Source: a virus (taxonomy: Duplodnaviria; Caudoviricetes). Taken from it: a DNA stretch of 64,000 bases. Under the pieces are notes generated by a model, which was given only the letters and a program-made list of their open reading frames with translations, had not been told where the DNA came from and ran no database searches. The DNA lies in the IMG/VR virus record IMGVR_UViG_3300025909_000005; one strand, written 5' to 3'. Positions within the stretch are counted from its first letter, which is position 1. Every line of letters starts with the position of its first letter. Positions 2,778 through 49,746 of this stretch are shown here, piece by piece. A program made the position numbers and the translations under genes.

Positions 2778-3301
2778 CCGCATCCACGTTCGGCGCCGCC
2801 TTTGACAAGCTGAGTCACGAGACTCAGCGTCAGTTCATCCACAACCTGAACATGAGGCGTGGCCACTACGCTGGCCTCATGGGCGGGTGTTCGACTCTCG
2901 AGTGGATCAGCCAAGTCAAGGCGGTCATTCTTGGCGACACGCCCGGCCCTGGACGTCCGAAAGACCCGAACTACCACCACACTCCCTTCTACAGCACGAA
3001 GAACTCCAGTCTCTGGATGAATGCCCAGCTCGTAGAAGCCGGCATTGACGAGCGTCGGCTTGCCTGGTTCAACACTACCCTCGCTGATGGCACCCTACTC
3101 GAGCAAGGGAAGGTGACGCAGTTCCTGCCGTTCAATCCGAAGATCATCGTGTTGGGCGGCAATGCCGAGAAGTGGGTGCGATGCGTCGCACCTACACCGG
3201 TCTACACGAAGGTGTTTCACCCAGCTTTTGCGAAGCGGTTCCATTCCAAGGAACCGTACGCGCTCATCAACGAACTTCTCTTTATCAAGGAACTGCAGTG
3301 A
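2774..3301 (+). CDS. uracil-DNA glycosylase superfamily protein (family-4-like, no Fe-S cysteines)
   Basis: ILGDTPG (motif A-like), AWFN, IIVLGGNA, VFHPAF (motif B-like). Confidence 0.65.
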   Translation: MTASTFGAAFDKLSHETQRQFIHNLNMRRGHYAGLMGGCSTLEWISQVKAVILGDTPGPGRPKDPNYHHTPFYSTKNSSLWMNAQLVEAGIDERRLAWFNTTLADGTLLEQGKVTQFLPFNPKIIVLGGNAEKWVRCVAPTPVYTKVFHPAFAKRFHSKEPYALINELLFIKELQ

Positions 3302-27285: not shown

Positions 27286-30200
27286 GTGAGAACACAACTA
27301 CCTGGTGAACAGATCCTAGATGGCAGCGTTGATACACCGGACCTTAAGAATGGCGCAGTCACAGATGTAAAGCTCAGTGACACTGGTGTCGCCGCTAGCA
27401 CCTTCACCAGCGTTACGGTGAATGCGAAGGGACGCGTCACCGCAGGCACGAATCCAACCACGCTCGCTGGATACGGCATCACAGACGCCGTTTCATCAAC
27501 TGATGCTGCCTCTTTCCCGATCATTCTCACGTCGCCTATCGCAGGCTTCACGGCTGGTCGTGTTCTCATGGGCACCACCAATCAGATCGTGCTCACGGAT
27601 GACGGCACGAACCTAACCGTCTCAATTGCAGACAACGCAGTTCTTCCTGGAACTGGCGCGGTCACTGTTCCATCTGGCACGACTGTTCAGCGTCCAACCG
27701 GCGCTGCTGGTCAGCTACGCTACAACACCACAATTCCTGCGCTCGAGGCCTACGTTGGTACTCGTGCATGGCAGCAGCTTGTTCTGGATGATGATCCTCG
27801 TCTTCAGAGCGACGCCTTTGTCAAGGTTGTTGACAAGACTCCAGTCGGTTCCCAGTACAGCTCCATCGCGGCAGCTTGCGCGGCAATCACGACAGCTTCT
27901 GAATCTCAGCCATGGATCGTTCGAGTTGGTCCTGGCCGCTATGTTGAGCCACAAATCGATGTTCCACCATGGGTCACGGTTGTGGGTCAAGCTGGCGCAG
28001 AATACGCAATCATCGTCACTCCTGACGATGGCACCCACCCCGTCTTCACGCTCGCCGAGAACTCTGGCGTTGCATCGCTGACCGTCTTCGATGCCACTGG
28101 CACAGATCAGGCTGGTTTCCAGATTCACAACTGCGGTTACTACGTCCTCCTGCACAAGGTGTCGATGACGAACGTCTCCGTTGGCTGGGACCTCGTTGCC
28201 GATTCTGTTGACTCGACGGTCTACTTCGAGTACTGCGACTGGGCAAGCAATGACGCGACCCAGGTTGGCCTGAAGATGTCTTCTGCCAATGGCTTCTCGC
28301 TGTACCTCAACGCAGAAAATTTCTACACCTACGGTCTCGCTGCAAACGCTACCTCAAGCATGATTCTGACAGGCAACAAGACTGTCCTGAACATGCAGGC
28401 CTTCGGTCTCGAAGGTGCTGACGGTACAGGTACCGCCCTGGTCGTTGAAGATGGCGCGCAAGTTGATGCCAAGGCCGGCCACATGTTTGGTTGGGACACT
28501 GCTGTCCACATTCCAAACACGGGCACTGCGCCGACGGTCAACATCTTGGCCGTTGACTTTTCGAACAACACAACGTGGGACCTCTTCACTGAGCACCCAT
28601 CTGCAATCGGTACCCTCAACGGCGGTACTGCTGATCGACTGAAGGTCAACGCCTCGGCGTCTCCTCTGTTCACGGCTGCCTACGCAGACGTGCTGCACAA
28701 CGAGTACGCGCAGACTGGCGACTTCTTCCTTGGTGACGATCAAAGCACGCTCACGAACATCTCACCTGCTATCTTCGAAAGCGGTGCAGTTGGTGTTCTG
28801 AATGGTGGTGCAATCTCGGTTGGCGCGGCTTCGGCGTCTGTTGACATCAGCGCCGGCTACGGTTACCTCCGCGATCCAACGACTCAGAAGCTGAAGCTCA
28901 TTACGTGGACTGCACAGACCAGCTTCCCGCTGATTGACAACTCACCGAACACAATTTGGGTTGACACGACTGGCACCTTCCACGCCACTCTCACGGACCC
29001 AGATGCGTACGAGAACATCATTCTTGGTGGTGCACTCTCCTTTGGTGGTTCGGTTGGCTTTATCGCGCGCACTGCTCTGCAGGCAGACAACGCTGCCACC
29101 CACCTTGACGACTTCCTTCGCGCTGCCTTTGGTACGATCTTTGTCTCGGGTTCGATGGTCTCTGAGAACGCGACGACGCCGTTCGCTCTCGATGTTTCGT
29201 CAGGCGTGTACTACTACTCGCGCATCAAGTTCTCGCCAAGCGGTGGAACTGGCGTCATGTTCCTCGAGTTCCAACCAGATGGAACATTCGCGCCCGCAAC
29301 AACGATCAACCACACGCAGTACAACAACGCAGGCACTCTGACGTCCCTCGCCGCAGGTACGTTCACAAAGCACGCGCTGTACCTGTTCGAAGACGGCGCT
29401 GACGAGACCTACGGCTTCGTGTTTGGTGACACGCAGTACGCCACCCTGAATGACGCCGTTGCTGGTCCTCTCCCAATCCCGCCATCGTTCTTCGTTCCAC
29501 CTGTCGTTGTCATCGCTGCGATTATCGTCCAGCAGGGTGCTACCCACATCTCGGAAATCCTTGATGAGCGTCCACGTCTTGGCTTCGTTGCAAGCGCGAC
29601 CTCTACGACCAGCGACCACGGTAACCTGACTGGTCTGCTTGACGACGACCACCCTCAGTACCTGCTAGCGAGCGGCGCTCGCTCCATGACGGGCAACCTT
29701 GACCTTGGTGGCTTCAGCCTAACGAGTGTCAACTTGGTTGACGGTGTTGACGTGTCGGCCCATGCTTCACGCCACCTGCCAAACGGTGCTGACCCAATCA
29801 CAACTGGTCCAGGCATCTCGGTCTCGGCCACGAGCACGAACTCCACAGGTACCGCGAACAGTCTCTCGCGAGCCGACCACGGCCACGCACTGGTTCTTGA
29901 CGCTGACCTGAATGCTCTTGCTGCGCTGACGACAACTGGTCTTGCAGCTCGTACCGCTGCTGATACCTGGACAACTCGTACCCTCACCGGCACCGCCGGT
30001 CAAATCGTCGTGACGAACGGCAGTGGCGCTGCTGGAAATCCAACGCTCACGCTTGACACCGTCGGCACGGCAGGCACATACGAATCCGTTACGACTGACA
30101 TCTACGGTCGCGTTACATCTGGCATCACTACTTCGTCGTACACTCTGGATTGGTCAAGGCTCGTCAACACGCCAACGACGCTGTCCGCCTACGGCATCAC

Positions 30201-32823
30201 GGACGCCCAGCCAGTTGACTCTGACCTGACTGCAATTGCTGGTCTTGGCACTGCTGGTTTCATCATCCGGACGGGTGCAGGTACGGCCGTTACACGTTCA
30301 CTCACCGCCCCAGCTGCCGGTCTCACGATCACGAATCCTGATGGCGTCTCTGCTGCTCCAGTCTTTGCGCTCGCAAACGACCTGGCCGCGCTGGAAGGAC
30401 TTGCCTCCACGGGTATCGCTGTTCGCACCGGCACCGACACGTGGGCACAGCGCACGATAGTTGCGCCTGCCGCGGGCATCACGATCACCAACGGCTCTGG
30501 TGCTGCTGGCAACCCTACTCTTGCGCTCGCAAACGACCTCGCAGCCCTCGAAGGACTCGCAGCGACCGGCTTTGCAGCTCGCACCGCAACTGACACGTGG
30601 ACGCAGCGCTCGATCACGGGCACCTCTGGTCGAATCTCTGTCACGAACGGCGACGGCGTTGCAGGCGCGCCAACCCTTGACCTCGTCGCAACTGGCACCG
30701 CGGGCTCCTACGGCATGGTCACGACCGATGCCTACGGTCGTGTAACAGCTGGTACCACCAATGACATCGCTCACGGCGGCACGAATCTAACGACACTTGG
30801 CTCTGCCAACCAGGTGCTTGGCGTAAACGCTGGAGCGACTGCTCTCGAGTACAAGACACTCACCCAGGGTACCGGCATCTCGATCACTAACGGTGCCGGC
30901 ACTGTTACAATCACCGCTACTGCAAATGGCACTGTCACCTCGGTAAACCTCACAGCTCCTGCTGCAGGTATTTCGGTTTCGGGCGGCCCAATCACGTCTT
31001 CTGGTTCCATCACGCTCGCACTCGCAAATGATCTTGCAGCGGTTGAAGGACTGGCAGGTACGGGCTTTGCAGTTCGTACTGCTGCTGACACCTGGACAAC
31101 CCGTAGCCTGACAGCTGGTTCCGGCATCGCAATCTCGAATGCTGACGGCGTTTCCGCTGCGCCAACGATCTCACTCTCAACTACTGGCACGGCTGGCACG
31201 TACGCAGTTGTAACGACGGACTCGTTCGGTCGAGTCACCTCGGGCACGACGACGCAGGCCTGGTCGACCATCACAGGCGCACCTACCACCATCTCGGGCT
31301 ACGGCATCACCGATGCCCAACCGCTTGATGCTGACCTAACAGCAATTGCTGCCTTCGCCTCGACGGGCTTTGCAGTTCGCACGGCCGCGGATACGTGGGC
31401 ACAACGCACGCTGACCGCTGGTTCCTCTAAGATCGCGATCACGAATGGTGCTGGTATCGCCGGCAATCCAACGATTGACGTCACTGAAGCGAACCTGACC
31501 ATCTCGAACATGGGCGGCACGCTTGCACTCACCCATGGCGGTACGGGTCTCACTGCTGGTGGCACGGCAAACCAAGTTCTTGGCATGAACGCCGCTGCAA
31601 CGGCACTCGAGTACAAGACAGTTACGGCTGGCACAAACGTCTCAGTTACGCAGGGTGTCGGCACAATCACGATCAACGCCACGGGTTCGGTTTCGTCGGT
31701 GAACATCACGCAGCCAGCGGCAGGCATCACCACTTCTGGCGGTCCGATCACGTCGACTGGCTCGATCACCCTCGCTCTGGCAAACGACCTTGCGGCTCTT
31801 GAAGGCCTCGGTTCCACGGGCTTTGCAGTTCGCACCGCCGCCGACACATGGGCTCAACGTTCCATCGCAGTTGGCTCTGGTCTCTCTGTTACGAACGGTG
31901 ACGGCGTTGCTGGCAACCCAACGATCAGCCTGTCTGGCACGAACTCCTCAGCATCTGGTGTCCTGTCTTCTTGGACGCTTGTTTCAGGAACTCGCTACTA
32001 CGCTGACTTCGCTCACAACCTGGCAACGAACAACGTCGTCATCACGCTGTACGACACGTCTGACAACTCAGTCGTTACGGCTGACTCGGTCGTTCTGACG
32101 AACACGAACACGGTTCGCGTCACCGTTGTTGGCAACACCCGCACCCTGCGCATCGTCGTTGTGGCAAACGGTCTTGCGATCAACACGGCTACCCAGTCAG
32201 CTGGCACGATCACGACCGCCCTCTCAGGTGTCAACGTCTCGACGGCCGCCTCTCGACTGAACTTCCAAGGTCAGGCAGTCTCGGTCTCTGATGCTGGCTC
32301 AGGCACGACCAACGTTACGATCGGCGCCCGCTTCTCGTACTTCGCCGCGTCGCTTGATTCGCCAATCAACTCCGACTGGGCAGTGAACGCGCTGGCACCA
32401 ACAGTCACTGACCCAACGTACCCATCCCTGACGGTTCGCCAGTTCAGCAACACGACCGAACAAGGCGTCGGCCTGCTGCTTTCTATTCCGGCTGGTGCAA
32501 CGACTGCAACCTTCCGCTTCCGTGGTCGTGCAGGTGCTGCTCCGGCCTCCGCCTCGGTTGCAGGCATGCGCATCTACCAACGTCTCATCCCTTCAGGTTC
32601 CGCTGTCGGTGCTTGGTCGGCTGTCCACGAAATCGGTGAAATCCCACTGCCAGTCACGACGCAGTACTTCCAGTATGCAACCTACACGATCTCACTTGCA
32701 ACGCTTGGCATGACCGCCAACAACATGTATCAAGTCGAACTCACGCGCCGCGTCTCTGGAACAACGGGTACAAACCTTGCTGCAAACTTCCTGCTGGCGG
32801 AAGTGACAGTGGAGCTCTCGTAA
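27286..32823 (+). CDS. long tail fibre (1845 aa) with beta-helix-like region and internal repeats
   Basis: GTG start; [11 protein letters not shown]...[10 protein letters not shown] pectin-lyase-fold-like cap; Thr/Gly/Ala-rich repeats. Confidence 0.8.
29890..31870 (+). repeat. seven degenerate ~32-aa repeats within the fibre
   Basis: (LAN/LDA/VDS)DL(A/T/N)A(L/I/V)xxLxxTG(F/I/L)AxRTxxDTWxxR recurs seven times; GTAGxYxxVTTDxxGRVTxG recurs three times here. Confidence 0.8.
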
Positions 32824-39474: not shown

Positions 39475-40122
39475 ATGCGCAAACGTGAACTGATGGGTGA
39501 GAGCGAAGACCTCGCAATCCCCTACGAGATGATCACCCTTCAGTCCCTCGGAGCCTACATGCTCTTCGGCGGGATTGACCAGCAGACGTCCTATGAGACC
39601 TGCGAGTTCATCATCAAGGCGAACCTGATTCAGCAGTCGCGCAACCCACTCAACCTGATCATCAACTCAGAGGGTGGGCACGTCACAGATGGCTTCGCCA
39701 TCATCGACGTCATGGAAACCTCCCGGCTTCCAGTTCAGACCATCGGTACTGGCATGATCGCCTCGATGGCCCTTCTCATTCTCTCAGCTGGCTCCAAGGG
39801 GAACCGCGTGATCACGAAGAACACCGAGATCATGGCCCACCAGTGGTACGGCGGCATGGAAGGAAAGTTCCATGAACTCATGGCCGTAACGAACGAGCAC
39901 CTTCGACTGAAGGAAACGTTCATCACTCACTTCAAGCGCCACTCGAAGATGAACGAGAAGCAGATCGTTGACATCCTCTTCTCGCCATCGGATCGCTGGC
40001 TCACTCCTCAGGAGTGCAAGAAGTACGGCCTCTGCGACAAGGTGACTGAGTTCATTGAGATTCAAGACCCAGTCAAGCCAAAGCGCGTCAGGACTTCCCG
40101 GCGTAGCGCGCCTGGAGCATGA
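39475..40122 (+). CDS. clpP: ClpP-family serine protease subunit
   Basis: INSEGG, GMIASMA (Ser), IMAHQ (His), DRWLTPQE (Asp), YGLCD. Confidence 0.88.
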   Translation: MRKRELMGESEDLAIPYEMITLQSLGAYMLFGGIDQQTSYETCEFIIKANLIQQSRNPLNLIINSEGGHVTDGFAIIDVMETSRLPVQTIGTGMIASMALLILSAGSKGNRVITKNTEIMAHQWYGGMEGKFHELMAVTNEHLRLKETFITHFKRHSKMNEKQIVDILFSPSDRWLTPQECKKYGLCDKVTEFIEIQDPVKPKRVRTSRRSAPGA

Positions 40123-40324
40123 GCTCCAGTTTCTGAAGACCTTCGTTGAGGGCCTTCGAGATTGCAGGGTTCTTTGCGAAGGCCCAAGCCTTCTCTTGCA
40201 GCTGTGACTTCACGTCGATGAGCTCGTTAGTGGTGAGCTGGTGCCATGTATCACGTGGTGGAATTGGCTTCTGCGCCTGATCGAGGAAGAACTCACCTTC
40301 ACCTGGCTGTAGACCTGTATCCAT
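40088..40324 (-). CDS. hypothetical late protein
   Basis: AAGGAG SD and TAAATA (40351-56) on minus strand. Confidence 0.7.
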   Translation of the reverse strand: MDTGLQPGEGEFFLDQAQKPIPPRDTWHQLTTNELIDVKSQLQEKAWAFAKNPAISKALNEGLQKLELMLQARYAGKS

Positions 40325-40424
40325 TTACATCTCCTTGTTGACGATGTTACTATTTACTAAGCGCAGAACACAAGCAGAACGTGGACCACAGATAAATAGG
40401 ACATGATCACCAGCTGAGACTAGA

Positions 40425-40793
40425 ATGAAGCTACACCGCGCAATCATCTCCGAAATGACGGGCCCAATCCCTTACGAGCTCACGCTCGGAGAGATCATCT
40501 CTGCTGGCGACACAACAGACAATTACCAGGTTTACGTACTTTCACTCCTATCCGGCTTCTTCGCGTCTGGCCAAAACTTCGCCACGCTGACAGCAGACGG
40601 ACTAGCACCCCTCTCTTCTGACGCGACCTCGACCCGCGCCATAGAGTCCATCAAGAGCCTATCCCCCTCCGACAAGGTGAAGTTGGCAACGTACCTCCTC
40701 GATTGCATCGCGGCAGGCTACTCAGCCCTCCACAACACGTACATGAGCTCCTCTGATTGGATCACTCTCATCCTTCGTGGCAACAACGTATGA
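40425..40793 (+). CDS. hypothetical late protein
   Basis: TAAATA at 40393-98. Confidence 0.65.
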   Translation: MKLHRAIISEMTGPIPYELTLGEIISAGDTTDNYQVYVLSLLSGFFASGQNFATLTADGLAPLSSDATSTRAIESIKSLSPSDKVKLATYLLDCIAAGYSALHNTYMSSSDWITLILRGNNV

Positions 40794-40836
40794 CACGATG
40801 AGGTGAGCTCTGTCATCCCATTTCCAGGAGGATCTA

Positions 40837-41622
40837 ATGGGAAGAAAACTCGCTTTGGCAAAACAGAAGTACCCGCAACCCGTCAACCCTGAAGGAACCC
40901 ACGCCATTCACCTCAAGTTCCGCCCAACTCCAAAGAGCGAATCCCAACGCTTCTACATGGAGTCTCTGCAAAACGCAAAGTTGACGATCGGTACTGGCCC
41001 AGCCGGTTCAGGCAAATCGTTCCTCTCGATGGCAGTCGCCGTCGAAAAGCTTCTCAACGGTGAAGTATCGAAGGTCGTGATCACGCGCCCTATCGTAGAA
41101 GCCGGCGAATCCCTTGGCTTCCTGCCAGGCACCTTCGAAGAGAAGATCTCACCCTACCTCCTCCCTCTCCTTGATGCACTGAATGATCTCGTTGGTCCGA
41201 CGATGGCGAAGAAGCTCCTCGACGGTGGCAAGATTGAATTTGCGCCTCTCGCGTACATGCGCGGTCGCACGTTCAACAACAGCTACTGCATCTTGGACGA
41301 AGCGCAGAACACGACCGTCGAGCAGATGAAGCTGTTCGTCACGCGTATCGGCGAGTACTCGCAGTTCGCTGTCAACGGTGACGCATCACAGACCGACCTC
41401 CGTGGAGTGCCTGAGAATGGCCTCGACTGGGTGGCTCGCAAACTGCGTGGCTGCTCCTCTGAGATCAACGTGATTGAGTTCACGAACTCGGACGTCGTTC
41501 GTTCGGCAATCGTGAAGACCATTCTGCATCACCTCGAATCTCCTGAGCCGCGTGCCCAAGAGAAACGCCGTGGTGGCACTCGTCATGAGTTCACCGCTCC
41601 CGCAGTTCTGCAATCAGCCTAA
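40837..41622 (+). CDS. phoH: PhoH-family ATPase
   Basis: GPAGSGKS, ITRP.VE, LGFLPG, PLAYMRGRTF, DEAQN, GDASQTD. Confidence 0.95.
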   Translation: MGRKLALAKQKYPQPVNPEGTHAIHLKFRPTPKSESQRFYMESLQNAKLTIGTGPAGSGKSFLSMAVAVEKLLNGEVSKVVITRPIVEAGESLGFLPGTFEEKISPYLLPLLDALNDLVGPTMAKKLLDGGKIEFAPLAYMRGRTFNNSYCILDEAQNTTVEQMKLFVTRIGEYSQFAVNGDASQTDLRGVPENGLDWVARKLRGCSSEINVIEFTNSDVVRSAIVKTILHHLESPEPRAQEKRRGGTRHEFTAPAVLQSA

Positions 41623-43337: not shown

Positions 43338-43366
43338 TGTACATTTTCACCACGTGGAACTATAAT
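43338..43366 (+). promoter_or_regulatory. early promoter
   Basis: TGTACA-N17-TATAAT. Confidence 0.75.
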
Positions 43367-43693: not shown

Positions 43694-44161
43694 ATGAAGA
43701 TCGTTAGCCGCATGAATCCCGAAGAACGCCAAATCGAGCGCCTTCAAGAAATCATTGAGGCCGCCACTGGCGGTGCAATTGGACCAGACGGTGAGTACGA
43801 ACTCGCCGACGATCTTCATGGACTTGTCACACAAGTTGACACGGCCTGTGCTTCCTTGATGGAGGCGAACGCCAAGCTTGAGCGCAGGATCAATCGGCTG
43901 CTCAACGAGAAGCACCACCTGAACCTCAAGCTTGCTGAGGCCAATGACTTCCTTCAGCCAATCCGCAACGGCGTGTCCTACGACGAACACCTCGACGAGG
44001 CCACTGCCGAGCTGATGCAGGCGTTTCTCGCTTCAGGCGCCGCGTCTGATACCTTCGATGGAGAGATCACCTTCGACTCGGAGGTGGTCTTCAGTCGCGC
44101 GGACCTGAAACCCATTCTCAAGCACGCCATCGAGGCGTGGCTGAACTCAAAGACTCTCTAA
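43694..44161 (+). CDS. hypothetical coiled-coil protein
   Basis: AGGAG SD. Confidence 0.75.
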   Translation: MKIVSRMNPEERQIERLQEIIEAATGGAIGPDGEYELADDLHGLVTQVDTACASLMEANAKLERRINRLLNEKHHLNLKLAEANDFLQPIRNGVSYDEHLDEATAELMQAFLASGAASDTFDGEITFDSEVVFSRADLKPILKHAIEAWLNSKTL

Positions 44162-44553
44162 TGCATTGGGTTGTTCTAGAACAGATCATCACCTCGAACT
44201 ACCCGCCGGTGGTGCGTGACGCAGCCATCAAGCTGGCTGATGCGACCTACACGGACGTGGGAACGTTCCTGAGCGAGCTCAGCACACAGGACCTGCATGA
44301 GCTCATGGGCTACTGCAACCGCATTGCAGTGAAGACCGACATGGACTTTGAGTACGACTCAATCGTCATTCTTGGCGAGATGCTGGCTCAGGCTGAAGGC
44401 GTCGTCCTCGAGGACATGTCTGTCGAACGGTCTGCCAACCTCATCATCCTCCTCAACTTCGAGGACATGGCGCGTCGAGGCATCATCGACTTCAACCGAG
44501 AGAAGGCCACCCTTGCAGGTGAACTTCCTCCTGACATTGCGAAAATAAAGTGA
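44161..44553 (+). CDS. hypothetical protein
   Basis: TAATG coupling at 44161. Confidence 0.7.
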   Translation: MHWVVLEQIITSNYPPVVRDAAIKLADATYTDVGTFLSELSTQDLHELMGYCNRIAVKTDMDFEYDSIVILGEMLAQAEGVVLEDMSVERSANLIILLNFEDMARRGIIDFNREKATLAGELPPDIAKIK

Positions 44554-44571
44554 GAAAATGAGGTTGGGGAG

Positions 44572-44599
44572 TGTACACCAACCGCCAAAGCGTTATAAT
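44572..44599 (+). promoter_or_regulatory. early promoter
   Basis: TGTACA-N16-TATAAT-GATTCATC. Confidence 0.75.
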
Positions 44600-44671
44600 G
44601 ATTCATCATCAACAAACAGCCGTTAGTTGGTGAAACAACCGCAAATCATCAACTCTTTGGAGAATTTTCCC

Positions 44672-45019
44672 ATGGCAAAGACCAGCAAGAAGGCCGACGT
44701 GTCGGCAACCGAATCCGCCGTCGCGACCGTCAAGGCTGCGAAGACCGCCGTCGAGAAGGCCGCCCGCAAGCGCTTCAGCTTCGGCCCGGTGTGGAACCAG
44801 GCCGTGATCGCCGGCACCGTCAAGGACACCGAGAAGCTCGTCGCGCAAGGCGTCAAGCTGAAGCTCGGCACCAAGGACGAGCTCGCCGCTCTGTCGCACG
44901 ACTCCATCATGGCCAAGGTCGCCGCCGCCCTCGAAGCTGGCATCACCGGCGACGAGAAGACGGAAGACACGACCGCTGCTTCCACCGAGACGGCCGGCGC
45001 CGAAACCGCCGAGGCCTGA
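44672..45019 (+). CDS. Ala/Lys/Thr-rich small protein
   Basis: GGAG SD; strongly biased codons. Confidence 0.8.
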   Translation: MAKTSKKADVSATESAVATVKAAKTAVEKAARKRFSFGPVWNQAVIAGTVKDTEKLVAQGVKLKLGTKDELAALSHDSIMAKVAAALEAGITGDEKTEDTTAASTETAGAETAEA

Positions 45020-45031
45020 TCCCCGCTGACC

Positions 45032-45085
45032 GCACCACCCGGGCCTACTTGATTCGTCAAGCCCATCTACCCGACCGGGTGGTGC
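45032..45085 (+). other. intergenic structured RNA element
   Basis: GCACCACCCGG(45032-42)/CCGGGTGGTGC(45075-85) enclosing CTTGA-TTCG-TCAAG. Confidence 0.6.
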
Positions 45086-45098
45086 CTCAAGGATTCCC

Positions 45099-45356
45099 AT
45101 GCGCACGATCACCGTGTTCATCCGAGCGCGAGACATCCCGCTCGGAAAGTTCGTTCAGCGCTCCATGGGCGGTGAAGAATTCCGCCTGACAGACGCCATC
45201 CGCATCGGTGACGTAGAAGTCCCAGCGCCCGCTGGTTCTGTCTTCCTCGTGCCGAAGAACGCTGGCAACATCCTCACCGCCAGCGAACAAGACGGCTTCA
45301 TCGTCGAGCTGACGGAGCTGGAAGTTTCCAACTACTTCGAGAGCTTCGAAGCATGA
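45099..45356 (+). CDS. hypothetical protein
   Basis: AAGGA SD. Confidence 0.7.
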   Translation: MRTITVFIRARDIPLGKFVQRSMGGEEFRLTDAIRIGDVEVPAPAGSVFLVPKNAGNILTASEQDGFIVELTELEVSNYFESFEA

Positions 45357-45703
45357 GCGTCAGGCCCCTCCTCGCTGACAAGGATCGATCACCCGACGGC
45401 TGCTACGTCGTCTACTGGGTGTCGTCCAGCAACCGCCTGATTCAAGAGCATCAGTGGTGGCGTCGCACGAAGTTGGGGCAGAATGACGCACGCATGCGGC
45501 AGTTCGACAGCTACGGCGCAGCCGTCAAGTTCCATTCGAAGCTCGTGAAGCTTCGTGACGAAGGTGGCGCCTACCTCGCCCGCACCGTCCTCCACGTTTC
45601 CCCACCCGTTCCGGCCACACCAATGCCGAAACCTGAACCCGTTCCTGATGGCATGATTCGCTGGCCTGATGGCTCAGTGACATGGGATCCGGAACTCGAA
45701 TGA
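45353..45703 (+). CDS. hypothetical protein
   Basis: ATGA overlap. Confidence 0.65.
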   Translation: MSVRPLLADKDRSPDGCYVVYWVSSSNRLIQEHQWWRRTKLGQNDARMRQFDSYGAAVKFHSKLVKLRDEGGAYLARTVLHVSPPVPATPMPKPEPVPDGMIRWPDGSVTWDPELE

Positions 45704-45710
45704 AAGAAAA

Positions 45711-46202
45711 ATGAAGCACCTCATCGCCCTCGCCCTCGTGGCCACCTCTGGCCTCGCCGCTGCGTCGACGCAAGACCCGACTGTTTCTCTCTCCACCGGC
45801 TACATCGCCGGCGTGACGAGGGGCGCGGTCTCGTACGACTTCAACGAACACCACTTCAACCGCTACTTCTCGGTCGTCCCGGAAGCAACGCTCGGCTACA
45901 TGCGCGACAACGCCACCGACAACCACAGCTGGGAAGTCAACATCAATCCCCAGTTCCGCGGCTACGTGACACCGAACCTGTACGCTGAACTCGGCGTCGG
46001 CATCGCCTACTTCAACAACCCGGCCTTCGCCTCGCCGTCGATCAACACGCGGTTCCAGTTCTCGGACATCGCAGGCGTCGGCTACAAGCTCTCGTCCAAG
46101 ACGGCCGTCGGTGTGCGCTACGAGCACTTCAGCAACGCTGACATCCGCAAGCCGAACCCTGGCGTGCAGGCACTCGAGCTGATCGTCACGAAGAAGTTCT
46201 GA
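45711..46202 (+). CDS. pagL: PagL-family lipid A 3-O-deacylase (outer-membrane beta-barrel)
   Basis: Signal peptide MKHLIALALVATSGLAAA; YAELGVGIAY, RFQFSDIAGVGY, RYEHFSNA.IRKPNPG with catalytic H-x-S; terminal Phe. Confidence 0.82.
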   Translation: MKHLIALALVATSGLAAASTQDPTVSLSTGYIAGVTRGAVSYDFNEHHFNRYFSVVPEATLGYMRDNATDNHSWEVNINPQFRGYVTPNLYAELGVGIAYFNNPAFASPSINTRFQFSDIAGVGYKLSSKTAVGVRYEHFSNADIRKPNPGVQALELIVTKKF

Positions 46203-46396
46203 TGGACATTGCCTTCCATCTCTACTGGTGGATCATCCCTGCAGTCCTTGCAGGGATCGGTGCCATCGTGTTCGCGGCCATTGGAGGGGAGCCGTTTGGC
46301 AGCCCCGGGCCCGACGTAGAGTGGCAGGCCATTCGCGCAGGTCTCTTTTGGTGGGTGCCTGCTCTCTGCATCTGCCTAGGACACTGGCTGCAATGA
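46202..46396 (+). CDS. small membrane protein
   Basis: TGATG coupling; two TMs. Confidence 0.65.
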   Translation: MDIAFHLYWWIIPAVLAGIGAIVFAAIGGEPFGSPGPDVEWQAIRAGLFWWVPALCICLGHWLQ

Positions 46397-46557
46397 CGTT
46401 CACAATCCACATTCTCTGGTGGTACATCCCAGCCGCCATCGCTGCGATCGGTTTGTTGTTCGTACCGTTCGCCCCTGGTGGCATTCTCGTCTCCATCGTC
46501 CTCTGGATCGTCGCCGTTGCGATGGTCATTGGGCACTACACGGCGTTCATGTCATGA
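46393..46557 (+). CDS. small membrane protein, N-terminus similar to the preceding gene
   Basis: FTIHILWWYIPAAIAAIG versus IAFHLYWWIIPAVLAGIG. Confidence 0.65.
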   Translation: MTFTIHILWWYIPAAIAAIGLLFVPFAPGGILVSIVLWIVAVAMVIGHYTAFMS

Positions 46558-46742
46558 TCATCCTGCTCATCCAAACTGTCGCGTACGACGAAGTTGGTCG
46601 CGTCATCACGTCGAACGCAATCGTGCACCAGACTGACCCACGAACTGCAACGCTGATGCAGCGCAATGCTGCCGAGCTCGACCGCACCCGATTTCCTCGC
46701 GTCGATGTCACCATCATGGAACTTGCAGACACGAATCGCTAG
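46554..46742 (+). CDS. hypothetical protein
   Basis: ATGA overlap. Confidence 0.55.
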   Translation: MIILLIQTVAYDEVGRVITSNAIVHQTDPRTATLMQRNAAELDRTRFPRVDVTIMELADTNR

Positions 46743-46770
46743 TGTACTTTCGGATTGAGCGTGGTATAAT
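46743..46770 (+). promoter_or_regulatory. early promoter
   Basis: TGTACT-N16-TATAAT with TG extension. Confidence 0.75.
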
Positions 46771-46797
46771 CGACTCCTCACCTAAGGAAAAGTACGA

Positions 46798-48258
46798 ATG
46801 AACCTCGCGACCCTCTGCCACGACGAAGCAACTTCCACCTGGTACGCCACCTTCAATGGTGAGACGGTGATGAGCTCAGTCGGTGGCGAGTCATCACGGA
46901 AGTACATCATCGAGCGCATCACGCAAGGCAAGTCTGCCAAGTGTCGCAAGCTCGGCATCGTCGGCTTCGACAACGTGCGCGAAGCCTTCGCACCCAACCC
47001 CCTCGCCAAGTCCGTCAGCCAAGCGTACGTTGAGCCTGTGAAGGCGAACAACGAGCTCTCCGTGCAGGAGCGCTACGACCTCCTCGACGAGTGTGTCGAA
47101 ATCGTGCTGCAAGGCCACGTGACCTCGCTCATCATCACCGGCCTCGGTGGTCTGGGCAAGACGTACCACACGAAGGCGAAGATCAAGGAACACAACCTCG
47201 TCTCGGTCGATGAAGCCAAGCTCATCGAGGAGACCCTCTCCGAAGAAGACCGCGACATCATCGAGCGCATCGAGCTGAAGATGGCCCAGTGCAAGTACAT
47301 CGCCGAGGCCTTCTACAAGACGCACGACAGGGACGCCAAGCCGCTGAAGAAGGCGAAGTCGAAGGAGGACGATGACGAACCCGAAGAGGAGCTCGAACTT
47401 GAGCTGAACTTCGGCAAGGTTAGCTACGACCTCCAGAAGTCCGACGACATCAAGGACCGCCGTTGTGCCGGCCAGTACTACCCGGGCACCCACGCCTACC
47501 GCTTCAACCTCACGCTGGCAAAGGAGAACCTCGACGACTTCATCGAGATCGTCGTGCCTCATGAGATCGCCCACCAAATCGACCACATCCTGCACCCGAA
47601 GGAGTCCGCGAAGGCGCCTCATGGCAAGAACTGGCAGACTGTCATGACGAAGTGCTTCAAGATTCCGGGCGACCGCTACCACACATACGATATTTCCACG
47701 GTCAAGAATACGCCTGAGCTGAAGGGCGACTACCACTACATGAAAGGCTACTCGTCGGCGAAGGGTCTCTACCGCACGCTGTACGAGAACCGGAAGAAGC
47801 TGGTAGTGTTCGACGACTGCGATGCGGCGTGGAAGAACGAAGTCGGCGCGAACATCCTCAAGGCCGCGCTTGACACCGACGAAGACCGCTGGGTCACGTG
47901 GAACGTCGAGCAGAACATGAACGACGATCTGCCGACGAGCTTCCTGTTCGAAGGCCGAGTCATCTTCATCTCTAACGTCCGGTCGCAGGACTTCCCTCAG
48001 CCGCTTGTCTCACGCGCCCTCCGCGCTGACATCGAGCTCACGACCGAGGAGACTTTCGAACGCATGCGTCAGCTCCTCTCGAGCGAGAGCTTCGCACCCG
48101 GCATCTCGATGGAGGTCAAGCAAATGGGCTACGACTTCCTCTACGAGAACCGAGACCGGGCGGCGGAGCTGACGACTCGCTCGCTGCTCAACGTCATCAA
48201 GGTCGCCAACACAGGCTCGAAGCTGTGGAAGCGGATCGCTCTCTCGAACATTCAATAA
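46798..48258 (+). CDS. AAA-type P-loop ATPase with inserted SprT-like metalloprotease domain
   Basis: Walker A GLGGLGKT; RCAGQ...PHEIAHQ...HGKNWQ (SprT); Walker B LVVFDDCD; NILKAALDT. Confidence 0.75.
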   Translation: MNLATLCHDEATSTWYATFNGETVMSSVGGESSRKYIIERITQGKSAKCRKLGIVGFDNVREAFAPNPLAKSVSQAYVEPVKANNELSVQERYDLLDECVEIVLQGHVTSLIITGLGGLGKTYHTKAKIKEHNLVSVDEAKLIEETLSEEDRDIIERIELKMAQCKYIAEAFYKTHDRDAKPLKKAKSKEDDDEPEEELELELNFGKVSYDLQKSDDIKDRRCAGQYYPGTHAYRFNLTLAKENLDDFIEIVVPHEIAHQIDHILHPKESAKAPHGKNWQTVMTKCFKIPGDRYHTYDISTVKNTPELKGDYHYMKGYSSAKGLYRTLYENRKKLVVFDDCDAAWKNEVGANILKAALDTDEDRWVTWNVEQNMNDDLPTSFLFEGRVIFISNVRSQDFPQPLVSRALRADIELTTEETFERMRQLLSSESFAPGISMEVKQMGYDFLYENRDRAAELTTRSLLNVIKVANTGSKLWKRIALSNIQ

Positions 48259-48423: not shown

Positions 48424-48591
48424 ATGGAACCAATCAGCTTGCCTGCCAATCCCGCTGACGGCCAAGTCGCGGTAGTTGATGGGAAGAAGTACGTGTGGCG
48501 CGACCGTTACACGTCGTGGTTCTTCATCGATGAGCCACCCGAACTGCCGGTTCCTCCGTTGCTTCGAATCCCGTTACCAAGAGAGGTGTAA
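48424..48591 (+). CDS. hypothetical 55-aa protein
   Basis: ATG abuts upstream stop. Confidence 0.5.
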   Translation: MEPISLPANPADGQVAVVDGKKYVWRDRYTSWFFIDEPPELPVPPLLRIPLPREV

Positions 48592-48606: not shown

Positions 48607-48634
48607 TGTACATCTGGAGAGATGTGCTTATAAT
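48607..48634 (+). promoter_or_regulatory. early promoter
   Basis: TGTACA-N16-TATAAT-GAATTCATC. Confidence 0.75.
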
Positions 48635-49718: not shown

Positions 49719-49746
49719 TGTACACCTGCGCGCGTCTTGATATAAT
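49719..49746 (+). promoter_or_regulatory. early promoter
   Basis: TGTACA-N16-TATAAT-GGATTCATC. Confidence 0.75.

Follow-up and report, generated by a model that had tools for sequence, protein, structure and literature searches.

The gene at positions 45711-46202 (+ strand) of a 64,000-nucleotide stretch of virus DNA (Caudoviricetes; IMG/VR record IMGVR_UViG_3300025909_000005; the entire stretch is hereafter called the window) encodes a PagL-family outer-membrane β-barrel that is predicted to be a lipid A 3-O-deacylase, based on a Pfam match, alignment to the solved PagL structure 2ERV, an AlphaFold model and the ratio of nonsynonymous to synonymous polymorphism (pN/pS). The protein is a member of the PagL family by every tested feature except the acidic third residue of the catalytic triad, a residue that does not define membership since the corresponding column is not conserved across the family. 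Sequence comparisons combined with the structural model favor, with a probability of approximately 0.6, an active lipid A 3-O-deacylase that would be placed in the outer membrane of the host early in infection.

Sequence features, family assignment and predicted fold

The open reading frame (ORF) begins with ATG, ends with TGA and encodes 163 residues. The N-terminus has the features of a Sec-type signal peptide of approximately residues 1-19 (45711-45767, + strand), as revealed by inspection of the sequence, with a short basic start (MKH), a hydrophobic core of 15 residues and a cleavage-type end of Ala-Ala-Ala-Ser; inspection of the same region revealed no lipobox Cys. The assignment is consistent with a helix spanning residues 2-16 in the structural model and with a fold match to mature PagL that begins at residue 23. 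The codons for His139-Phe-Ser141-Asn142 (46125-46136), aligned to His126, Ser128 and Asn129 of 2ERV, specify the predicted catalytic base, nucleophile and oxyanion-hole Asn, and the complete H-F-S-N-A motif spans nucleotides 46125-46139. Further downstream, codons for Asn149-Pro-Gly-Val-Gln153 (46155-46169) contain an invariant Asn149 and, within the sequence P-N-P-G-V-Q, a Gln153 (CAG, 46167-46169) that occupies the position of the triad residue Glu140 in alignments with 2ERV. The C-terminal residue is Phe163.

The Pfam profile for PagL (PF09411) scored the protein at 74.6 bits (E 1.1e-20), over its curated threshold of 23, and the generic OMP_b-brl profile scored 24.2 bits, under its own cut-off of 28.7. 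No NCBIfam model matched the protein above threshold. Neither this protein, nor any in the related phage genome G001 or in Ralstonia phage RsoM2USA, matched the profile for the other lipid A deacylase LpxR (PF09982). A full-library search returned 467 relatives at E ≤ 1e-3 which, together with the Pfam E value, indicates that the match to PagL is not due to chance. Among solved structures, the sole real sequence match identified with phmmer was PagL of Pseudomonas aeruginosa (2ERV, E 3e-9), in an alignment that pairs His139, Ser141, Asn142, Asn149 and Gln153 of the phage protein with His126, Ser128, Asn129, Asn136 and Glu140. The essential nature of the His and Ser has been reported for PagL of Salmonella (PMC4958258), and conserved active-site Asn residues that include the oxyanion-hole Asn are described in a review (PMC4402001). 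All 100 aligned relatives retain His139, Ser141, Asn142 and Asn149, and the near-invariant positions outside the catalytic set are all kept (Gly30, Gly95, Gly97, Phe117, Gly122, Arg136, Pro148 and Gly151). A match to phrog_15758, a family of unknown function in PHROGs, extended end to end over residues 1-160 (E 1.1e-10), indicating that PagL-like proteins are already present, unlabelled, in the phage protein library.

The AlphaFold model, built from the 100 aligned relatives, has a mean predicted local distance difference test score (pLDDT) of 94.2 and is comprised of the leader helix at residues 2-16 (lower pLDDT of 67-76), a linker and eight strands between residues 24 and 162. Foldseek ranked 2ERV at the top with a template modeling score (TM) of 0.73-0.81 and a root mean square deviation (rmsd) of 2.5-2.8 Å; OmpA, OmpX and Ail were found at TM ≤ 0.57, with Ail and OmpX at ≤ 0.48. 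Comparison with VIA, which also located the start of the fold match, gave Z 21.5 for 2ERV with an rmsd of 1.7 Å over 141 of 150 residues, and lower scores for OprF (Z 17.0), OmpA (16.4) and Ail/OmpX (10.4-11.4). An earlier note on this DNA, which had been made from the sequence alone, named the gene a PagL on the strength of a signal peptide, amphipathic β-strands, an HFSNA motif and a terminal Phe, and pointed out an apparent Gln at the acidic triad position. Each of these features was recovered here, the strands as the eight of the model and the Gln by phmmer alignment, and the family assignment is upheld by profile, 2ERV alignment, fold and the catalytic set of His, Ser and Asn.

The third triad position

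Among 152 aligned sequences the column of Glu140 contains Asp (68), Asn (59), Glu (12), Thr (5), Gln (3) and Ser (3), with the His and Ser of the active site essentially invariant and both Asn invariant. In a set of 165 rows, comprised of the aligned relatives plus named bacterial loci and metagenome loci, the counts were 68 Asn, 63 Asp, 24 Glu and 6 Gln. On the tree of these 165 rows, acid and amide must have been exchanged at least 20 times, and Asp and Asn alternate even among close chromosomal copies from Alcaligenaceae. The six Gln are confined to one sub-lineage containing the window protein, its near-identical metagenome copies and the metagenome protein P0002, which retains Gln at 45% identity to the window protein. 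As judged from these alignments, PagL proteins have no fixed residue at the third triad position, where an amide is found most often. Since the position is variable, Gln153 is weak evidence of inactivity and is read as a tolerated, maintained variant and not as a lesion. The Gln pointed out in the earlier note is not considered an anomaly that would threaten activity. The lack of conservation of the acidic residue bears on how this family of enzymes is described.

Phylogeny and distribution

Trees of 118 and 165 rows were constructed with the LG+G4 model and branch support from the Shimodaira-Hasegawa-like approximate likelihood ratio test. The window protein grouped with P0002 with support of 94-96, within a clade of 14 rows (clade A, support 89) that also contains the copy from G001 and six metagenome proteins of 144-172 residues. 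None of the best 80 bacterial-genome loci, which are mostly from Burkholderiales and show 30-40% identity, fell within clade A. A further clade of 14 rows (clade B, support 91) was likewise without bacterial-genome rows. Clade A attaches to a large group rich in Burkholderiales and is nested in no single family; a recent acquisition from any named host family was rejected, the phage clade lying inside no bacterial family. Chromosomal PagLs of Burkholderiales (Bordetella, Achromobacter, Pusillimonas, Cupriavidus and Lampropedia) are the nearest named cellular relatives, and many resemble the phage protein in that the third triad position is occupied by an amide (Asn), although they form separate clades. 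Library relatives outside both phage clades differ in being mostly longer, approximately 170-250 residues.

Two contigs show the genomic surroundings of clade B members. On a 13-kb IMG/VR contig (L002, 6806-10027) the PagL gene directly follows a gene encoding a phage RtcB-type RNA ligase (phrog_1075) and is followed by an ORF of 78 residues with transmembrane and coiled-coil segments and by a 417-residue membrane-anchored protein of phrog_11908; other phage families are encoded on the same contig. On the second contig (L091, 1-2684) a PagL of 158 residues lies amid seven tRNA genes (Gln, two Ile, two His and two Thr) and an HNH-like ORF. Arrays of tRNA genes with this layout are typical of large virulent phages.

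The trees and the genomic contexts together point to phage-borne lineages of PagL, for which the phage nature of clade A rests on two contexts, the lineage of the window and G001. Searches with tblastn using four PagL queries (the window protein, the L002 type, the bacterial-like P0020 and P0024 of clade B) gave no match in 50,697 GenBank phages, and a scan of IMG/VR with the clade A alignment returned G001 alone. Within the sensitivity of tblastn and of a megablast search with part of the window, the GenBank set contains neither this phage nor these clades of PagL.

Conservation and residency in the phage genome

In G001 the PagL gene is located between homologues of the ORF at 44672 and of the ATPase containing an SprT-like domain, the same slot that it occupies in the window. 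Copies with 96-99% protein identity are present on three contigs from JGI environmental metagenomes (L088-L090) in the same gene order, and all three are intact with the active-site residues kept. Comparison of the window gene with the metagenome copies yielded pN/pS of 0.11 and 0.32 in the two pairs that were informative; just three sites differ in the third. The PagL gene is under purifying selection. The GC content at third codon positions (GC3) is 0.88, the same as that of the RnlA and topoisomerase genes of the phage, which argues against a recent acquisition.

The phage and its lifestyle

The window is a single long array of genes on the + strand with approximately 56% GC. It encodes both subunits of topoisomerase II, thymidylate synthase, RNA ligase A, ClpP, PhoH, a family B DNA polymerase and large structural proteins, with T4-type replication genes throughout. 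The DNA polymerase shares 47% identity with its counterpart in the 344-kb Ralstonia phage RsoM2USA and approximately 33% with those of jumbo phages of Xanthomonas and Stenotrophomonas. A megablast search with 12 kb of the window revealed no close relative among GenBank phages, and no tRNA was found in the 64 kb. The IMG/VR genome G001 (349,660 bp, 97% complete according to CheckV) encodes a polymerase 73-74% identical to that of the window and has a matching local gene order. Gene content and polymerase relationships identify the window as part of a T4-related jumbo phage. No tyrosine or serine recombinase and no integrase was found in G001, and the lifestyle of the phage is apparently virulent, as judged from these genomes; the statement in the earlier note that the window bears no sign of lysogeny is thereby extended to a near-complete relative.

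Two further observations were made on the window. An ORF of 1845 residues (27286-32823, + strand) contains seven separate stretches matching phrog_697, a structural protein, a pattern suggestive of a giant virion protein with internal repeats. Upstream of the PagL region, genes for a ClpP-family protease (215 residues) and PhoH (261 residues) are near neighbors (39475-41622, + strand), with homologues in G001 that are 71 and 86% identical, respectively.

Gene neighborhood and expression signals

The PagL gene is part of a tightly packed string of genes that extends from 44672 to 48258 on the + strand. The string is headed by a sigma-70-like promoter-like site (TGTACA/16 nt/TATAAT, 44572-44599), identified as a consensus match. 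The first ORF (44672-45019), with an ATG inside a frame that opens with TTG at 44627, encodes 115 residues rich in Ala, Lys and Glu, with GC3 of 0.89 and a conserved K-R-F-S-F-G-P-V-W core, and is 57% identical to the corresponding locus of G001 (L001, 7660-7860). It is followed by ORFs of 85 residues (45099-45356) and 116 residues (45353-45703), the latter with its stop 7 nt before the start of PagL. The PagL stop overlaps (TGATG) the start of an ORF for a 64-residue protein with two transmembrane segments (46202-46396), and the stop of that ORF is in turn overlapped by the start of a second, for 54 residues with two transmembrane segments (46393-46557); comparison within the window indicates that this second protein is a weak paralogue (31% identity, E 1e-6). 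The small membrane proteins that the earlier note placed around PagL are thus represented by the two ORFs directly downstream, which are translationally coupled to PagL. No ORF at 43694-45703 or 46202-46557 matched Pfam or PHROGs. The slot has a conserved anchor on its downstream side, the SprT-like domain inside an ATPase of PHROG 1250 (46798-48258), 59% identical to L001 8658-10280. A hairpin with a T-rich tail resembling a terminator (48491-48514), also a consensus match, is the likely end of the string, although sites of this kind are no commoner in the window than in shuffled sequence.

The ORFs following PagL differ between genomes. Contig L090 has an extra small transmembrane ORF of approximately 48 residues (~2884-3030) between PagL and the first two-transmembrane ORF, and in G001 PagL is followed by a soluble ORF of 122 residues, the two small transmembrane ORFs not being conserved there. 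Therefore, the part of the slot downstream of PagL is variable.

Four promoter-like sites with TGTACA and TATAAT separated by 16-17 nt were located on the + strand of the window (43338-43366, 44572-44599, 48607-48634 and 49719-49746), where none is expected by chance (0 in 100 shuffles). The four share bases past the -10 element (TATAATG..T..TCATC..CAA) and look like an early promoter type of the phage. The T4-type late motif TATAAATA was absent from the + strand in a search of the window, and the shorter TAAATA late-type motif was not found on the + strand between 41673 and 51973. The sigma-70-like site, together with the lack of late-type motifs nearby, argues for expression from early in infection, and transcription of the string by the host polymerase in an early-type manner is inferred. 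Placement of the gene in an early region, as proposed in the earlier note, is accordingly supported in an indirect way, by consensus matches.

Proposed mechanism and benefit to the phage

The features described above suggest the following sequence of events. The phage PagL, made from early in infection and acting through the latent period, would be exported by Sec and then inserted into the outer membrane of the host by the β-barrel assembly machinery. In the outer leaflet, Ser141 would attack the ester that holds the 3-hydroxyacyl chain at position 3 of lipid A, with His139 activating Ser141, Gln153, where an Asp, Asn or Glu is usual, orienting His139, and Asn142 stabilizing the oxyanion. The resulting under-acylated lipopolysaccharide (LPS) may alter packing of the membrane and cause vesicles to be shed, such that later phages would adsorb or inject poorly, an outcome amounting to exclusion or receptor editing.

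The benefit to the phage was deduced from the effects of PagL known in bacteria. In Salmonella, active PagL raises the release of vesicles without envelope stress whereas a His/Ser double mutant does not, with a build-up of deacylated lipid A in the vesicles (PMC4958258). In P. aeruginosa, changes in acylation of lipid A alter entry of phage PP7 (PMC10783630). In view of the early-type context, exclusion or receptor editing is ranked first among the possible benefits, although it is held at somewhat under even odds. Pre-weakening of the outer membrane for lysis is ranked second and would be a distinctly less probable benefit; shielding of the infected cell from agents that target LPS, ranked third, may be slightly less probable again. 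A benefit of some other kind is given the smallest share. Dampened TLR4 signalling, which the earlier note had listed, is unlikely as a selective force since the phage is known from environmental metagenomes only.

A broader proposal is that the two clades represent phage-specific PagL lineages that serve virulent phages as early enzymatic editors of the outer membrane, leaving the infected cell refractory to phages that arrive later or shedding decoy vesicles. This proposal is tentative and is considered doubtful as a whole. If true, it would constitute a lipid-level counterpart of O-antigen seroconversion that is undescribed for virulent phages. E. coli K-12 is without pagL, and a shift in the mass of lipid A is a standard read-out of deacylation. 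Since the family is unlabelled (PHROG 15758), a demonstrated activity would annotate many phage genes at once.

Alternative explanations

Several points weigh against an active deacylase. The PagL of the window is only 33% identical to that of G001 (L001, 7860-8348) compared with 41-86% for the shared neighbors and 74% for the polymerase, and no other gene that the two slots have in common differs as much. This divergence could reflect relaxed or changed function, or replacement, and not simple conservation; either PagL evolves faster, as a fast-evolving surface-exposed protein, or the slot has stayed fixed while its alleles were swapped. PagL is missing from RsoM2USA, the closest relative to have been isolated, and the gene is therefore dispensable for such phages. 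The promoter and terminator assignments are consensus matches only. Finally, we know of no Gln-bearing PagL that has been assayed. The first of these points is also compatible with an active esterase directed to another lipid of the outer leaflet, such as a mislocalised phospholipid, a different acyl position or a host-specific glycolipid, the specificity having drifted within the phage clade. An intact catalytic set in a protein otherwise 21-24% identical to the characterized enzyme, and a compact phage clade (144-172 residues) set apart from the bacterial-genome copies, would fit this alternative. It is nevertheless regarded as unlikely, given that the near-invariant positions outside the catalytic set are all kept and that the match to the PagL fold covers the whole mature protein at 1.7 Å; to our knowledge, no PagL-family member has a different substrate. 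Slightly less likely is an enzyme weakened or inactivated by Gln153 and kept as a structural barrel that masks or crowds receptors or binds LPS. Gln does stand where the solved enzyme has its acidic triad residue and is rare (6 of 165 rows, all in one sub-lineage), and phages do carry non-enzymatic eight-stranded barrels, as found among matches in BFVD. However, the His, Ser and both Asn are invariant in the lineage and in both phage clades, which is unexpected for a pseudo-enzyme, chromosomal PagLs most often have an amide (Asn) at this position, and purifying selection is evident.

The two remaining alternatives concern the origin of the gene and the type of barrel. That the gene does not belong to the phage, being either mis-assembled bacterial DNA or a recent passenger without a selected role, could be argued from the 30-40% identity to chromosomal genes of Burkholderiales as the nearest named relatives, but is considered very improbable. 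The gene order is common to the window and three independent contigs (L088-L090), with the flanks also found in G001; the gene is joined to its neighbors by a 7-nt gap upstream and a stop/start overlap downstream; GC3 is like that of phage genes, pN/pS is well under 1 and clade A has no bacterial-genome rows. Bacterial contamination or a chimera was rejected on the basis of the gene order in the contigs, pN/pS and GC3. Least probable of all, to the point of being barely credible, is an adhesion or serum-resistance barrel of the Ail/Lom/OmpX type without enzymatic activity, the alternative that had been named in the earlier note. Such proteins have the same general eight-stranded shape, and Ail and OmpX are among the fold matches, but at Z 10.4-11.4 against 21.5 and TM ≤ 0.48 against 0.73-0.81 for PagL. 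Pfam assigns the protein to PagL with no match to the Ail/Lom family and with OMP_b-brl under its cut-off, and the H-x-S-N motif is present; an Ail/Lom-type barrel was rejected as contradicted by profile, motif and fold. An active lipid A 3-O-deacylase thus remains the favored interpretation.

Comparison with known systems

The phage protein resembles PagL of P. aeruginosa (2ERV) in the eight-stranded barrel, with a mature length of approximately 145 residues compared with 150, and in a His-x-Ser-Asn motif and second invariant Asn at matching positions. It differs in being just 21-24% identical and in having Gln153 where the P. aeruginosa enzyme has Glu140. Furthermore, the bacterial gene belongs to a stress regulon of the host whereas the phage gene is virus-encoded and apparently transcribed from a phage promoter, as suggested by the site heading the string. 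Lom of lambda and Ail/OmpX are likewise small eight-stranded barrels of the outer membrane and phage-encoded, but are without the catalytic motif, are expressed from prophages and match the model with Z of approximately 11 versus 21.5.

A full-text search of the literature revealed no paper in which phage genomes or jumbo phages are connected with PagL or lipid A 3-O-deacylase. Deployment of PagL by a phage is apparently undescribed in print, and the view of the earlier note that the gene is unexpected in a lytic phage holds against the literature searched. The nearest precedent is LpxR carried by prophages. The gene for LpxR (PF09982) adjoins that for antiterminator Q in prophages of pathogenic E. 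coli (bioRxiv 10.64898/2026.05.13.724894), and regulation of prophage-borne LpxR has been noted (PMC7649339). As with the phage PagL, this is an outer-membrane lipid A deacylase encoded on phage DNA. It differs in its family, which is unrelated and acts by removal of the 3'-acyloxyacyl group, and in being a gene of temperate lambdoid prophages that benefits the lysogen.

Virulent phages are known to produce early superinfection-exclusion proteins, exemplified by Imm and Sp of T4 and Llp of T5. These are early envelope-directed proteins of virulent phages, as the phage PagL would be, and their role is the one ranked first for it. In contrast to PagL, they block injection or mask a protein receptor with no enzymatic change to lipid, and have no relation to it in sequence or fold. 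Changes that phages impose on the envelope are known mainly at the sugars of the O-antigen, for temperate phages, and at protein receptors. A virulent jumbo phage that trims lipid A would, if the interpretation is true, add the lipid anchor as a third level, with superinfection exclusion, shedding of vesicles, an outer-membrane step in lysis and altered sensitivity to LPS-targeting agents as possible consequences.

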